Of a stretch of 18,239 nucleotides of DNA, positions 2,786-18,239 are shown one piece after another. Source of the DNA: a virus (lineage: Duplodnaviria; Heunggongvirae; Uroviricota; Caudoviricetes); IMG/VR virus record IMGVR_UViG_2609459801_000018. One strand, 5' to 3'. A program made the translations under genes and the position numbers. Each line of letters starts with the position of its first letter. The first letter of the stretch is position 1. The notes beneath the pieces are model-generated. The model was not told where the DNA came from. It saw nothing but the letters and a program-made list of their open reading frames with translations, and made no database searches.

Positions 2786-3682
2786 ATGCCTGCTGTTGAC
2801 CTTTCCCAGTTACCGGAACCCGCCATCATCGCGAAGCCTGATTTTGAGGCAATTCTGGCTGACACAAAGGCCATGATGATTGCGTCCTATCCTGCCGAAC
2901 AGCGTGAAGCCGTCTCCGCCGCGCTGGAGCTGGAATCGGAACCCCTGAACGTTATCGCTCAAACCATGTCTTTTCGTGAAATGCTGTTACGCCAGCGGGT
3001 TAACGAGGGCGCACGCGCCTGCATGTTAAGCCACGGTTCAGGGACAAACCTGGACAACCTCGCGGGCAATATGAACACAAAGCGCCTGGTTATCACTCCG
3101 GCAACGGATACCACCGACGCGGTGATGGAGAGCGACACCTCGCTGAGATTGCGGGCGCAACGGGCGTATGACGGCCTGAGTGTTGCTGGCCCGTCAGGTG
3201 CATACGAGTATTTTGCACGCAGCGCCAGCGGTCTGGTGCGTGATGCGCGGGCCATCAGCCCGTCTCCGGCCTGTGTGACGGTTTCCATCCTGTCCACTGA
3301 AGGCGACGGCACAGCAACGGAGGCGTTGCTTAATACCGTTCGCGCCGTTCTGAATGCAGAGGATACCCGCCCGGTGGCCGACCGCCTGACCGTACAGAGC
3401 GCCAGAATCGTGACATGGCGGCTGAATGCAAAACTGTACTTTTACCCCGGCCCGGAATCCGAACCTATTCTGGCCGCGGCTGAATCGTCGTTCAGGAAGT
3501 GGCTGGCTGAGCAGGGGCTTATCGGTCAGGACGTGGCGTTGTCCGCCATTGCTGCCGCACTGCATGTGCACGGTGTGCAACGCGTGGAGATAATCGAACC
3601 CACACAGAATATGGCCATCAGCGACATACAGGCGGCGCGCTGTGAGTCATTCACCATCAGCGAAGGTGGACGCAATGAGTAA
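2786..3682 (+). CDS. baseplate assembly protein J
   Basis: 298 aa, sitting between W and I as in P2; length and position fit gpJ. Confidence 0.8.
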   Translation: MPAVDLSQLPEPAIIAKPDFEAILADTKAMMIASYPAEQREAVSAALELESEPLNVIAQTMSFREMLLRQRVNEGARACMLSHGSGTNLDNLAGNMNTKRLVITPATDTTDAVMESDTSLRLRAQRAYDGLSVAGPSGAYEYFARSASGLVRDARAISPSPACVTVSILSTEGDGTATEALLNTVRAVLNAEDTRPVADRLTVQSARIVTWRLNAKLYFYPGPESEPILAAAESSFRKWLAEQGLIGQDVALSAIAAALHVHGVQRVEIIEPTQNMAISDIQAARCESFTISEGGRNE

Positions 3683-8486: not shown

Positions 8487-8540
8487 TATCCCTACCTATA
8501 CCAACTATGTATTTTTCACGAAACAAAGAGGATGTTTTTT

Positions 8541-9140
8541 ATGCAAATTGGCTATGTTCGTGTGTCAACAAATGACCAGAACACGGATTTACAACGCAAT
8601 GCACTGAACTGCGCAGGATGTGAACTGATTTTTGAAGATAAAATCAGCGGAACGAAATCAGCCAGACCGGGATTGAAAAAACTGCTCAGAACGCTATCAG
8701 AAGGAGATACGCTGGTTGTCTGGAAGCTGGACAGACTGGGCAGAAGTATGAAACACCTGATCACGCTTATTGAGGAATTGCGGGAAAAAGGTGTTAATTT
8801 CCGTAGTCTGACGGACAGCATTGACACATCAACACCCATGGGGCGTTTCTTTTTTCACGTCATGGGGGCTTTAGCCGAAATGGAACGTGAATTAATTGTA
8901 GAGCGTACACTGGCCGGGCTGGCAGCAGCACGCGCACAAGGACGCATTGGCGGACGTCGCCCGAAGTTGACAAAAGAACAACACGAGCAAATAGCGAGGC
9001 TGATTAAAAACGGTCATGACAGGAAACAACTGGCGATCATTTACGACATCGGCATATCGACGATTTATCGTTATCACCCTGTAGGCGATATACAGGCTGA
9101 AGAAACAACCAGGCAGACTCAGGAAAATGAAAACCGCTAA
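8541..9140 (+). CDS. site-specific DNA invertase, small serine recombinase of the Hin/Gin/Pin/Cin/Min family
   Basis: N-terminus MQIGYVRVSTNDQNTDLQRNAL with the catalytic Ser in VSTNDQ; motifs VVWKLDRLGRS, GRFFFHVMGALAEMERELI..ERT and a C-terminal HTH region, near-identical in pattern to Pin/Gin. AGAGGA RBS 8 nt upstream of the ATG at 8541; the ORF-track start at 8346 is rejected. Confidence 0.93.
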   Translation: MQIGYVRVSTNDQNTDLQRNALNCAGCELIFEDKISGTKSARPGLKKLLRTLSEGDTLVVWKLDRLGRSMKHLITLIEELREKGVNFRSLTDSIDTSTPMGRFFFHVMGALAEMERELIVERTLAGLAAARAQGRIGGRRPKLTKEQHEQIARLIKNGHDRKQLAIIYDIGISTIYRYHPVGDIQAEETTRQTQENENR

Positions 9141-16049: not shown

Positions 16050-16310
16050 ATGTTCCGTTGTCCGCTTTGTGGCGCATCTGCCCGTATCCGCACCAGTCGT
16101 TCGGAAAATGATTCAAACACCGTACGGAAAAAATATTACCAGTGTAACAACCTGGAATGCGGCATAAGTTTCTCAACACTGGAAGCTTTCCATAAATTCA
16201 CATCGAAACACGCCCCCGGCGTTCACTCTTCAGAAGGTATCCCGTGGCATGAGTTGCCAGCTTCACACAGGGGAAACAATCAGATGAGTTTGCCTTTATC
16301 TCAGAATTAA
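16050..16310 (+). CDS. ogr: Ogr/Delta-family zinc-finger late transcription activator
   Basis: N-terminus MFRCPLCGASARIRTSR....YYQCNNLECGISF reproduces the Ogr C-x2-C...C-x4-C zinc-finger pattern; AAGGGAGG RBS; located after D as in P2. Confidence 0.8.
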   Translation: MFRCPLCGASARIRTSRSENDSNTVRKKYYQCNNLECGISFSTLEAFHKFTSKHAPGVHSSEGIPWHELPASHRGNNQMSLPLSQN

Positions 16311-16370
16311 CAGGCAGAATTGCCGGAGTAACAAAAACGCGATAGATTACGCGCGGGTGCCTTTCGGCTG

Positions 16371-16583
16371 ATGGTCGGAGGGAATACCCGAAGGCCAGAT
16401 GTGGAAAGGCCCCGGAAAACATCTCTGTTTAACCGAGGCCCTAACCGCATTACCTTGACAAGTGAAAGGTTAGCGCCTCTCCGGAAAAGGAGCAAGTGCT
16501 ATGTCGCAAAAATCGCTTACGGCCATCACGTTCTGCGTGACGGCAATCCTCATCATCTGGATGCTGCACGGTTCGCTGTGTGA
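16371..16583 (+). CDS. mok-like overlapping reading frame of a hok/sok-type locus
   Basis: 70-codon ORF that starts upstream of the hok-like ORF and overlaps it in another frame, the arrangement of mok/hok in plasmid R1 (mok there is also 70 codons). Confidence 0.4.
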   Translation: MVGGNTRRPDVERPRKTSLFNRGPNRITLTSERLAPLRKRSKCYVAKIAYGHHVLRDGNPHHLDAARFAV

Positions 16584-16641
16584 AATACGGATGAGTTTCT
16601 GGGGAGCGGAGTTTGCGGCGTTCTTACAGTGTAAGCAGTAA
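16501..16641 (+). CDS. Hok/Gef-family type I toxin (small membrane peptide)
   Basis: 46-codon ORF, not in the supplied track (too short): MSQKSLTAITFCVTAILIIWMLHGSLCEIRMSFWGAEFAAFLQCKQ. Hydrophobic N-terminal helix followed by SLCEI...E.AAF..C, the Hok family signature, closest to HokA by memory. AAGGAG RBS 8 nt upstream. Confidence 0.65.
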   Translation: MSQKSLTAITFCVTAILIIWMLHGSLCEIRMSFWGAEFAAFLQCKQ

Positions 16642-16734
16642 GGAAACCGCGACGGGGAAGGCAACTTCCCCGTCAATCGGTTGCCAGGGTAAAGGTCGAA
16701 AAGACACCCTATTTCCAGTTGACGTGAACAACAA

Positions 16735-16768
16735 GCCCGCAGCGTAAAAACTGCGGGTTTTCTTTTTG
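16735..16768 (+). terminator. intrinsic terminator downstream of the hok-like gene
   Basis: Stem CCCGCAG / CTGCGGG with an 8-nt loop, followed by TTTTCTTTTT. Confidence 0.6.
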
Positions 16769-16790
16769 GTTCCCTCACTCATGAGGACAC

Positions 16791-16830
16791 CAAAAAACAA
16801 AGCCCACAGCATAGAAACTGTGGGCTTTTT
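16791..16830. terminator. bidirectional intrinsic terminator; likely serS terminator on the minus strand
   Basis: Stem AGCCCACAG / CTGTGGGCT, with TTTTT on the plus side and, on the minus strand, TTGTTTTTTGG. Confidence 0.55.
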
Positions 16831-16946
16831 GCATTCAAAGATGGACGTTATATGGACACTTAAAAATAAAATCCATTTATTTTCAAATGATTAAACCTCT
16901 ACTTAAAGCGCCCGCAGGCGCTTTTTAGATTCAGAAAAATTGGGTA

Positions 16947-18239
<1,293 letters not shown>

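Follow-up and report, generated by a model that had tools for sequence, protein, structure and literature searches.

A probable hok/Sok-type toxin-antitoxin cassette carried by a P2-like prophage at the serS terminator

What lies between ogr and serS at the right end of this P2-like prophage: a regulated type I toxin-antitoxin cassette, the relic of one, or host DNA that happens to abut the phage? The window, by which we mean the whole 18,239-nt stretch of DNA that was analyzed, contains two overlapping open reading frames on the plus strand of this region, one of 46 codons (16501-16641) and one of 70 codons (16371-16583), and both are present in the ORF list. A sequence-only reading of the region had taken the shorter frame for a Hok/Gef-like toxin and the longer one for a mok-like leader frame. 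The two frames fared differently, and we consider the toxin first.

The toxin gene and its relatives

The assignment of ORF 16501-16641 (+) to the Hok family was confirmed by profile searches. The 46-aa product (MSQKSLTAITFCVTAILIIWMLHGSLCEIRMSFWGAEFAAFLQCKQ) matches Pfam HOK_GEF (PF01848) over residues 7-44 with 29.9 bits (E 4.1e-7), which is above chance since the score exceeds the gathering cut-off of 22; PHROG 251 is matched with 80.6 bits (E 1.3e-22), and the RefSeq entry for the product is WP_000078916.1, 'Hok/Gef family protein'. In the numbering of a recent preprint (10.1101/2025.08.07.668861), the residues of the Hok family logo are M1, C16, T18, L30, C31, E32 and E41, followed by a C-terminal Cys or Tyr. 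These positions are occupied in the window peptide by M1, C12, T14, L26, C27, E28, E37 and C44, and the core aligns without gaps, so that the characteristic Cys/Thr/Leu-Cys-Glu/Glu spacing suspected from the letters is indeed kept. C27, E28, E37 and C44 are invariant across 21 members of the subfamily, and in E. coli, Shigella, Salmonella and Klebsiella alike the frame has gathered many synonymous changes and remains unbroken.

The gene is already known. It is annotated in RefSeq and in phage records, and the peptide is part of a published catalogue and toxicity screen: the 2026 preprint by Escalera-Maurer et al. (10.1101/2025.08.07.668861) lists an identical 46-aa peptide, and hence the same entity, as construct 72_1621 of Hok cluster 72 in the tested set of its Table S2. 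According to the preprint, 42 of 45 Hok constructs were toxic, and the three that its text names as non-toxic do not include 72_1621. Toxicity of this peptide can be inferred from that text, for an assay in which the coding sequence alone was overexpressed. Both the gene and its context also match PHROG 251, 'MokW-like host killing', in phage P88 and its relatives. We conclude that 16501-16641 is a real but ordinary Hok-family membrane toxin gene that had been catalogued before, and because hok genes are, in addition, known to be enriched in prophages, the finding of the gene as such matters little.

How is the peptide related to the better known members of its family? Hok of the plasmid R1 hok/mok/sok system (parB) belongs to the same peptide family, with an identity of 39% over a 31-residue BLASTP core and 30% in the full multiple alignment. 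The window peptide is six residues shorter and ends with Cys-Lys-Gln, whereas R1 Hok ends with Tyr-Glu-Ser-Gly-Lys, and the R1 system is plasmid-borne, whereas the cassette in the window is phage-borne. The best NCBIfam match is to the chromosomal HokA of E. coli (NF007290). The peptide and the sequence that we take to be HokA have the motif ...W-M-x-x-x-S-L-C-E...A-A-F-L-x-C-K in common, and NF007290 hard-codes both cysteines. Since the score of 34 bits stays below the cut-off of 89 and the identity is about 41%, the window peptide is not a HokA equivalog; the genomic context of HokA differs as well.

Like the window cassette, hokW-sokW of the Stx2 prophage Sp5 is carried by a phage (Takada et al. 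2021, PMC8621323). It is a working type I toxin-antitoxin pair that aids lysis and release after mitomycin C treatment, and the only hok for which a role in a prophage has been demonstrated (PMC8621323). HokW, with its 51 aa, a MKQQKAM start and a VDYESEK end (primers in PMC8621323), is not an orthologue of the 46-aa window peptide. A true orthologue of ORF 16501-16641 does occur in Stx phages, as a separate, uncharacterized 46-aa gene located after lom with 82% identity at the DNA level. The possibility that this Stx-phage match is the characterized hokW was ruled out, because the primers in PMC8621323 give a different peptide. Searches of the literature for hok together with P2-like phages yielded nothing specific.

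Related loci were searched for with an alignment of the 21 subfamily members as the query. The subfamily is present in 1548 of 5426 complete E. coli genomes (about 28%), with up to seven copies per genome. All 80 viral loci encode an identical peptide, and diversity was therefore sampled from contigs encoding Salmonella and Klebsiella members; a profile scan of genome contigs gave six loci only, three of them with implausible taxon labels.

Predicted fold of the hok mRNA and a Sok-type antisense unit

The next question is whether the toxin gene is embedded in the RNA architecture of a hok locus. The predicted full-length hok mRNA is about 410 nt long and extends from 16355 to 16768 (+). Its putative 5' end was placed by the start of the match to Rfam RF01794 (sok / hok leader) at 16355 and by the alignment with the R1-type hok leader, and its putative 3' end by the terminator. 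The RF01794 match lies on the hok strand and spans the full length of the model, at 48.4 bits (E 1.7e-9), i.e. below the gathering score of 59. The fold predicted for this mRNA has a z-score of -6.5 relative to shuffled sequences. A putative hok promoter (16320-16348, +) consists of the -35 box TTGCCG (16320-16325), a 17-nt spacer and the -10 box TAGATT (16343-16348). In 14 of 15 loci, the -10 hexamer (TAGAAT or TAGATT) is conserved and its distance to GGGTGCC at the 5' end stays constant; the promoter does not reach the threshold of a generic consensus scan (8 of 12).

The order of elements is common to R1 and the window: a 5' tac, ucb, the GAGG box, the boxes of the putative Sok promoter, the hok SD, a GC hairpin after the stop codon and a 3' fbi. 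The tac-like element (16355-16367) is composed of GGGUGCC (16355-16361) and UCGG (16364-16367) and pairs with positions 16696-16709 of the fbi-like element (GGUCGAAAAGACACCC, 16694-16709). In the RNAalifold consensus of 41 loci, the tac columns pair with the fbi columns, with compensatory changes in four of the four inner-helix pairs; thus, the 5'/3' fold-back suspected for this locus was recovered with covariation among homologues. Single-sequence folds that stopped, as in R1, at the end of fbi formed the closure in 10 of 10 loci; folding the mRNA all the way to the terminator did not produce it. The fbi element of the window carries a private G-to-A change at 16704, which places a C-A mismatch in the fold-back stem; this is the sole such row among the 41 distinct sequences, with the prophage of DA33135, identical to the window at this pair, merged into the same row. 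Restoring G at 16704 raises the predicted stability by 6.6 kcal/mol. Homology among the cassette alleles stops just past the fbi element.

Between these two ends, a series of helices was identified. The ucb-like box (GGAAAGGCCCC, 16403-16413) was recognized by its alignment with the R1-type leader. It is followed by a leader hairpin (GGCCCCGG...CCGAGGCC, 16408-16440) that forms the body of the predicted Sok target and contains a GAGG corresponding to the R1 mok SD; its helix (helix 5) is paired in 100% of the 41 sequences and includes one compensatory pair. The hok start-sequestering hairpin (16471-16501) joins UAGCGC (16471-16476) with GUGCUA (16496-16501) and encloses both the anti-SD CCUCUCC (16476-16482) and the SD AAGGAG (16487-16492). 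In this helix (helix 7), 99.6% of the cells are paired, and G-C to G-U changes are seen in 15 sequences. Within the coding region, a long-range helix of 12 pairs (helix 8, 16503-16619) connects GUCGCAAAAAUCGC (16503-16516) with GCGGAGUUUGCGGC (16606-16619) and is 99.8% paired, which accounts for the near-invariant DNA at 16607-16641 (entropy 0.01-0.15). The GC hairpin that had been placed at about 16650-16673 is present directly past the hok stop at 16650-16675, where a terminator-type scan detected it; it has nine pairs, five of them with compensatory changes (helix 14). The intrinsic terminator claimed for the locus is likewise present at 16733-16768, with a 10-bp stem extending to 16760, an 8-nt loop and a T-run to 16768; it is common to most P2-like alleles and replaced in others.

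Over the whole consensus structure, 98.3% of the cells from the 41 distinct loci are paired, compared with 34-46% when the partners are slid. Two-sided changes occur in 17 pairs (80 cells), and 0 of 500 shuffles matched the observed values, in a test in which the structure was derived and counted on one and the same alignment, which favours it.

One additional similarity to R1 emerged when the folds with and without fbi were compared. Without fbi, tac is predicted to re-pair with 16403-16413, and GAGGCC with GGUUAGCGCCUC (16468-16479), so that the switch between full-length and truncated mRNA described for R1 (PMC9841398) is reproduced in the predicted folds of the window. The same tac/ucb and GAGG/dcb re-pairing is the thermodynamic prediction for the truncated folds of the window and of five other loci (L003, L007, L008, L091 and L096). 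For the hok SD, the predicted probability of being unpaired rises from 0.00 in the full-length fold to only 0.12 in the truncated fold of the window.

Sequence comparison also allows a Sok-type antisense unit to be located, on the minus strand; its transcription is inferred. The predicted RNA is about 60 nt long, with putative ends at ~16459 and ~16398, and would comprise a single-stranded variable 5' tail (16459-16441), a conserved hairpin (16442-16406) and a U-rich 3' tail. Its predicted fold has a free energy of -26.4 kcal/mol (z -3.9), and the consensus hairpin contains 14 pairs over 16 distinct alleles, two of them with compensatory changes. The most variable stretch of the leader, 16446-16466, lies opposite the Sok 5' tail. 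The putative Sok promoter (16467-16494, -) is formed by the -35 box TTGCTC (16494-16489) and the -10 box TAACCT (16472-16467), and in both R1 and the window such boxes have a 17-nt spacing and lie just upstream of the hok SD. They match in position and spacing the AGGATA...GCGCAA boxes of the R1-type locus, which are presumably the R1 Sok promoter. Five of the six positions of the -10 box are invariant in the 41 sequences, and the hexamers fall below the generic consensus threshold. Since a generic sigma-70 scan of 16200-16950 found no site, the assignments of both the hok and the Sok promoters rest on homology and conservation; a candidate for the minus-strand promoter sought at this locus could be positioned by comparison with R1 and by its conservation.

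The leader frame and a proposed mechanism

These data raise a further question: does translation of hok depend on a leader frame, as it does in R1? In the canonical hok/mok/sok arrangement, the leader ORF (16371-16583, or the part starting from TTG 16455) would have to be translated for the hok start to open, and Sok would act by blocking initiation on the leader ORF. Such a reading draws on the requirement for mok translation in R1 (PMC9841398), on the 16371 frame being open in the window and in closely related 'window-type' alleles, and on the position of the in-frame TTG 16455, which lies just opposite the predicted 5' end of Sok, about where the R1-type mok ATG aligns. Against it, 18 of the 41 distinct homologous loci have no upstream ORF (with an ATG, GTG or TTG start) that reads into hok, and in the rest the frames begin at three or more different starts (-130, -103, -28, -38, -145), with reading frames shifted by tolerated 1-nt indels. 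In the homologues from P88, Stx phages, Salmonella and Klebsiella, the 16371 frame is closed or differently started. Moreover, ATG 16371 is located within the 5' stem and lacks an SD, a distance of 17 nt separates the GAGG from TTG 16455, and the 70-aa product has no Pfam, NCBIfam or PHROG family. An R1-style dependence on the leader ORF is therefore unlikely here. The mok-like frame of the sequence-only reading does exist in the window; what did not stand is its status as a conserved element of the locus, and we regard it as a lineage-specific open frame.

We also looked upstream of hok for a mok substitute, namely a conserved short ORF with the invariant TAG of GGTTAG as its stop codon, and considered the mini-ORF GTG-xxx-GGT-TAG. 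It was rejected, being present in many E. coli alleles and missing from those of Stx phages, E. albertii and most Salmonella. No leader ORF was conserved in any frame among the homologues.

Since no leader ORF is conserved in the subfamily, hok is probably translated, unlike in R1, without coupling to a mok leader ORF. We tentatively raise the possibility that this widespread, phage-borne subfamily of 46-aa Hok peptides represents a mok-independent form of hok/Sok in which tac/fbi, ucb/dcb and Sok were kept and the leader ORF was lost. If so, Sok, with a predicted binding site 28 nt or more upstream of the hok SD, would control hok by refolding and RNase III decay alone. The GAGGCC box, once freed, might for example compete with the anti-SD, and the hypervariable 5' tail of Sok would set allele-specific immunity among the copies, up to seven, of one genome. 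A subfamily that has the whole R1 RNA architecture, yet no conserved mok, amounts to a natural experiment on the need for mok coupling.

Taken together, the locus is most probably a type I toxin-antitoxin cassette of the hok/Sok type. It measures about 390-450 bp and is accessory cargo, located between ogr and attR, of a P2-like (P88-like, Xuanwuvirus) prophage. The following mechanism can be proposed. A stable mRNA of ~410 nt would start near 16355 and end at the terminator (16768); covariation and folding show that its 5' end (16355-16367) pairs with fbi (16696-16709) and that local and long-range helices hide both the SD and the start codon of hok. With these hidden, the full-length mRNA should be translationally inert. 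Following the R1 paradigm, slow 3' trimming would remove fbi, after which, according to the predicted folds, the 5' end would refold onto 16403-16413 and GAGGCC onto 16468-16479. The short, unstable Sok from the minus strand (~16459 to ~16398) would pair with the leader via its allele-specific 5' tail and, by analogy with R1 and hokW-sokW, mark the processed mRNA for RNase III decay. If Sok synthesis stopped, for instance on induction, on loss of the prophage or when an infecting phage shuts off transcription, the 46-aa Hok would be made and would depolarize the inner membrane. Among candidate roles, we rank stabilization of the prophage highest, followed by help with lysis at induction, as for hokW-sokW, and then by exclusion of other phages. 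Several observations run against the hok/Sok-type reading: the sub-consensus promoters, the RF01794 score below the gathering score, the small predicted opening of the hok SD in truncated folds, the private stem mismatch in the window copy and the reported inactivity of the chromosomal hok loci of K-12.

The preprint, RefSeq and the phage records cover the coding sequence only; Sok, the fold-back, the status of mok and the position of att are not part of them, and the regulatory map drawn here (the Sok unit, the fold-back, the SD-sequestering helices and the boundaries from the -35 box to fbi) is absent from these sources. For studying the role of hok in prophages, a P88-like phage would be convenient, being small and inducible and having a single cassette beside att.

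Retention of the cassette and its position in the prophage

Could the cassette nevertheless be decaying, with the ORF and RNA signals kept by descent only and without effect on phage or host? The private C-A mismatch in the fold-back stem and the sub-consensus promoters would fit such a relic, as would two observations elsewhere: the promoter and 5' end are clearly gone from one Salmonella copy (L092), and the chromosomal hok loci of K-12 have been reported inactive, as cited in the preprint (10.1101/2025.08.07.668861). On the other hand, an ORF that stays intact through many synonymous changes from E. coli to Klebsiella, and regulatory helices that are maintained by compensatory changes, speak against decay. 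The cassette is also retained in inducible phage isolates and in more than a quarter of the complete E. coli genomes, and the peptide is identical to one that, on the preprint's text, is among the constructs found toxic. We therefore consider a non-functional relic quite improbable and retain the reading of a hok/Sok-type cassette.

It remains to be asked to whom the cassette belongs. Directly upstream lies ogr (16050-16310, +), the late-gene activator of the P2-like prophage, which matches Pfam Ogr_Delta with 57.8 bits and is annotated as ogr/Delta-like in the near-identical DA33135 prophage; the position right after ogr given in the sequence-only reading is thus correct. Its placement of the locus between the prophage end and serS is not. 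Downstream lies serS (16947-18239, -), and between it and the cassette is the attR core (AAAGCGCCCGCAGGCGCTTT, 16905-16924), which is the serS terminator and forms the prophage/host junction. This 20-bp core is an exact repeat at both ends of the DA33135 prophage, the other copy being located beside dmsA. Because the core lies at 16905-16924, beyond the cassette, and is duplicated next to dmsA, the cassette is inside the prophage, which is integrated at the serS terminator and extends from int to ogr-hok. The minus-strand ORFs across the region (102, 62, 74 and 62 aa) have no Pfam family.

The alternative of a chromosomal, host-encoded hok locus with the prophage simply next to it, an idea invited by the intergenic location near serS, outside the last recognizable phage gene, is scarcely credible, as identity with K-12 starts at the att core, K-12 and most E. 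coli share just 16905-16940 of the region, the core is repeated on the dmsA side, and the cassette travels after ogr with P2-like phages that are integrated elsewhere and occurs in phage isolates.

The cassette is therefore cargo (a moron) of the P2-like prophage, located just inside its right end, and not host DNA. In 78 of the 93 related loci, hok is preceded at about 193 nt by the end of an Ogr-like gene, and the ogr-hok arrangement is present both in P88-like (Xuanwuvirus) phages and in P2-like phages that use other integration sites. Among isolated phages, the cassette is found in P88, P884B11, 500465-2, Chuche, PhiR44_2 and Shae_phiSM.

Identity and placement of the toxin cassette

The locus is a true type I toxin cassette of the Hok family; its hok-mRNA architecture is conserved, and it is carried as cargo by a P88-like prophage just inside attR at serS. 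The toxin ORF of 46 codons (16501-16641, plus strand) and a mok-like ORF of 70 codons (16371-16583, plus strand) are both listed among the ORFs of the window; ogr (16050-16310), whose product matches Pfam Ogr_Delta, lies upstream, and serS (16947-18239, minus strand) lies downstream. The pattern scan, which gave 5 terminator-like sites versus 1.1 expected from shuffles, located a GC hairpin (16650-16675) and an intrinsic terminator whose stem-loop spans 16733-16760 and whose T-run extends to 16768. All of these elements had been named in the sequence-only reading, and all are present.

The 46-aa peptide, MSQKSLTAITFCVTAILIIWMLHGSLCEIRMSFWGAEFAAFLQCKQ, matches Pfam HOK_GEF with 29.9 bits (gathering score 22, E 4e-7) and PHROG 251, "MokW-like host killing", with 80.6 bits. 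In NCBIfam it comes closest to the HokA equivalog model, scoring 34 bits where the cut-off is 89; judged by these scores, the peptide is a Hok-family member closest to HokA and not HokA itself. It was aligned with Hok of R1, confirmed at 100% against plasmids, and with HokA, HokB, HokC and HokE of K-12. The core is gap-free, and the family positions C12 and T14 (hydrophobic helix), L26-C27-E28, E37 and the C-terminal Cys44 are kept. Because the conserved Cys and Glu positions are retained, the earlier suggestion of a Hok-like peptide holds. The toxin gene is already annotated and catalogued: its RefSeq annotation is "Hok/Gef family protein" (WP_000078916.1), and the identical peptide is listed as 72_1621 among the cloned toxicity-assay constructs tabulated in a 2026 preprint on Hok diversity (10.1101/2025.08.07.668861). 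In that study 42 of the 45 tested Hok homologues were toxic, the three named exceptions being constructs other than 72_1621. In effect, the toxicity assay of this peptide has been done there, on the overexpressed coding sequence only.

In most E. coli genomes, including K-12, only 16905-16940 of the region is common. Strain DA33135, which is near-identical here, has the order dmsA, int-C-cox ... D-ogr-hok, serS, with a 20-bp exact repeat, AAAGCGCCCGCAGGCGCTTT, at both ends of its prophage. The window copy of this repeat is at 16905-16924, and the cassette therefore lies inside the prophage, at least 137 bp from the att core. The previous placement between the prophage and serS, possibly as host DNA, was wrong, as the att core is beyond the cassette.

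The att core (16905-16924; 1351-1370 of L099, the DA33135 prophage locus) is the serS transcription terminator itself, so that upon integration serS keeps an intact terminator and a second copy is placed beside dmsA. A further hairpin of terminator type, scored for the minus strand, is located between the cassette and the att core (16799-16828); in the circular phage this hairpin would be downstream of int, across attP. It copies the hok terminator at 16733-16760 imperfectly (AACAAGCCCGCAGCGTAAAAACTGCGGGTTTT versus AACAAAGCCCACAGCATAGAAACTGTGGGCTTTTT), and stem pairing is kept despite the G>A and C>T differences.

Fold-back structure of the hok mRNA and the putative Sok unit

An IncFII plasmid encoding a Hok identical to that of R1 was used as the comparison locus, and on alignment it has the same element order as the cassette. 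The two share the 5' G-rich end, the GCCCCG box and TTAACC-CGAGGC, the AGGATA/AGGTTA and GCGCAA/GAGCAA boxes located 17 nt apart just 5' of the hok Shine-Dalgarno sequence (SD), the post-stop GC hairpin, and a 3' element whose sequence complements the 5' end. The Rfam model RF01794, although named sok, matches in full length on the hok strand (16355-16514, E 1.7e-9), with a score of 48.4 bits that is under the gathering score of 59; the model describes the hok leader, since its consensus ends in SD and AUG.

RNAalifold applied to 41 distinct homologous sequences recovered the 5'-3' closure, in which GGGUGCC (16355-16361) pairs with GGCACCC (16703-16709) and UCGG (16364-16367) with 16696-16699. 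Compensatory changes occur in every one of the 4 pairs that make up the second helix, namely U-A to C-G (n = 9), C-G to G-C (n = 9), G-C to A-U (n = 8) and, for the fourth pair, G-U to C-G or G-C in 13 sequences. In the 80-pair consensus structure 98.3% of cells are paired, versus 34-46% when partners are slid by 1-3 columns; 17 pairs (80 cells) carry two-sided changes, and none of 500 shuffles reached the observed pairing values. The structure was derived from the same alignment as the counts, which biases them in its favour, although the margin is large. A hairpin pairing 16471-16476 with 16496-16501 encloses the anti-SD CCUCUCC and the SD AAGGAG, thereby burying the latter, and the post-stop GC hairpin has five compensatory pairs. 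The 3' coding DNA is almost invariant because 16606-16619 forms a 12-pair helix with the first hok codons (16503-16516).

Single sequences folded from the 5' G as far as the 3' fold-back element (fbi), inclusive, closed their ends in 10 of 10 loci. With fbi removed, the 5' end re-paired with GGAAAGGCCCC (16403-16413) and GAGGCC with GGUUAGCGCCUC (16468-16479); this predicted refolding is the tac/ucb and SD/dcb switch known from R1. A16704 forms a C-A mismatch within the closure, which is found in no row of the 41 distinct sequences but that of the window. A G at this position would add 6.6 kcal/mol of predicted stability, and closure is predicted even without it. The G-to-A change behind the mismatch lies in fbi; this private change is also present in DA33135, which is identical over the fold-back stretch and was merged with the window row.

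On the minus strand, the position of the R1-type boxes indicates a putative Sok promoter with -35 TTGCTC (16494-16489), a 17-nt spacer and -10 TAACCT (16472-16467). We take the AGGATA and GCGCAA boxes of the R1-type locus to be the R1 Sok promoter. Of the six -10 bases, five do not vary in 41/41 sequences, and the remaining one turns the box into the TATCCT of R1 in some Salmonella alleles; both hexamers fall below the threshold of the generic consensus scan. The predicted Sok would start near 16459 and be about 60 nt long; its 19-nt single-stranded 5' tail would be followed by a hairpin that is conserved, two of its 14 consensus pairs carrying compensatory changes, and by a U-rich tail. Variability within the leader is highest in the stretch opposite the 5' tail (16446-16466), directly beside the least variable part, a pattern that fits allele-specific recognition by the predicted Sok. 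We infer a well-placed, unproven Sok unit.

The upstream mok-like frame

The sequence-only reading had called the cassette a hok/mok-type locus. In R1, translation of mok as far as the hok SD is required (PMC9841398), and this defining feature is not found at the family level among the 41 homologous sequences. The 70-codon frame is open in the window, but its start has no SD and lies within the 5' stem, and its product has no family match in Pfam, NCBIfam or PHROG. Read from the equivalent ATG, the frame ends before hok in both P88 and the Stx phage. No ORF started by ATG, GTG or TTG reads into hok in 18 of the 41 sequences; the others fall into start classes -130, -103, -145, -38 and -28, their frames displaced by tolerated single-base indels, and a conserved short upstream ORF was not found in the compared homologous loci. 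Thus, the Hok core of the earlier call stands, whereas its mok assignment does not.

It is possible, though rather doubtful, that this 46-aa hok subfamily functions without mok, a mildly novel reading that, if true, would be of moderate interest to specialists in RNA regulation. The Hok-diversity preprint states outright that it does not analyse Mok or Sok (10.1101/2025.08.07.668861). The predicted folds offer no explanation for the release of hok translation without mok: from full-length RNA to RNA without fbi, the predicted unpaired probability of the SD rises only from 0.00 to 0.12 for the window copy, and for the Stx allele from 0.01 to 0.36.

Copies in other phages and genomes

In 78 of 93 related loci the cassette lies 3' of ogr with the same spacing, and isolated P2-like phages (genus Xuanwuvirus and relatives), namely P88, P884B11, 500465-2, Chuche, PhiR44_2 and Citrobacter phage Shae_phiSM, carry it at 91-96% identity. 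Relatives in Salmonella and Klebsiella are also located at prophage or island ends, adjoining host genes, and the subfamily occurs in 1548 of 5426 complete E. coli genomes, with 1 to 7 copies each. As alleles are homologous between the -35 box (about 16319) and a point just beyond 16709, the mobile unit is about 390 bp, with the terminator common to some alleles only.

Among phage hok loci, a role has been shown only for hokW-sokW of Sp5, which aids lysis and phage release after mitomycin C; HokW has 51 aa, starting with MKQQKAM and ending with VDYESEK according to the paper's primers (PMC8621323). It is not the orthologue of ORF 16501-16641. The Stx-phage orthologue is a distinct, uncharacterised gene of 46 aa located after lom, within a cassette copy of 82% identity (2671-2811 of L003, Shigella phage 75/02 Stx; likewise in 933W and VT2-Sakai). 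Stx phages with this gene appear to hold two different hok loci.

Some Salmonella genomes have tandem cassette pairs about 490 bp apart with differing Sok-tail sequences (hok at 3001-3141 and 3491-3631 in L096, and at 3001-3141 and 3495-3635 in L097). Another Salmonella copy, after tail-fibre genes and beside fieF (L092/L093, 2851-2900), has kept the ORF and lost the promoter and 5' tac, and appears to be decaying. Enterobacterial hok DNA is also present in contigs titled Planococcaceae MAG, Vagococcus sp. (L005 and L006; 98% identity to the query peptide, Ogr-like gene upstream) and Xanthomonas pisi (L009; 72% identity, without an Ogr-like match), probably through contamination or misbinning in public assemblies. 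In the DA33135 prophage (L099 11378-12653 and 31664-32263, the latter of which should correspond to about 8530-9130 of the window), ParM/partition-like genes are annotated, and a recombinase gene lies among tail-fibre genes of opposite orientation; its presence suggests that the tail-fibre segment is invertible.
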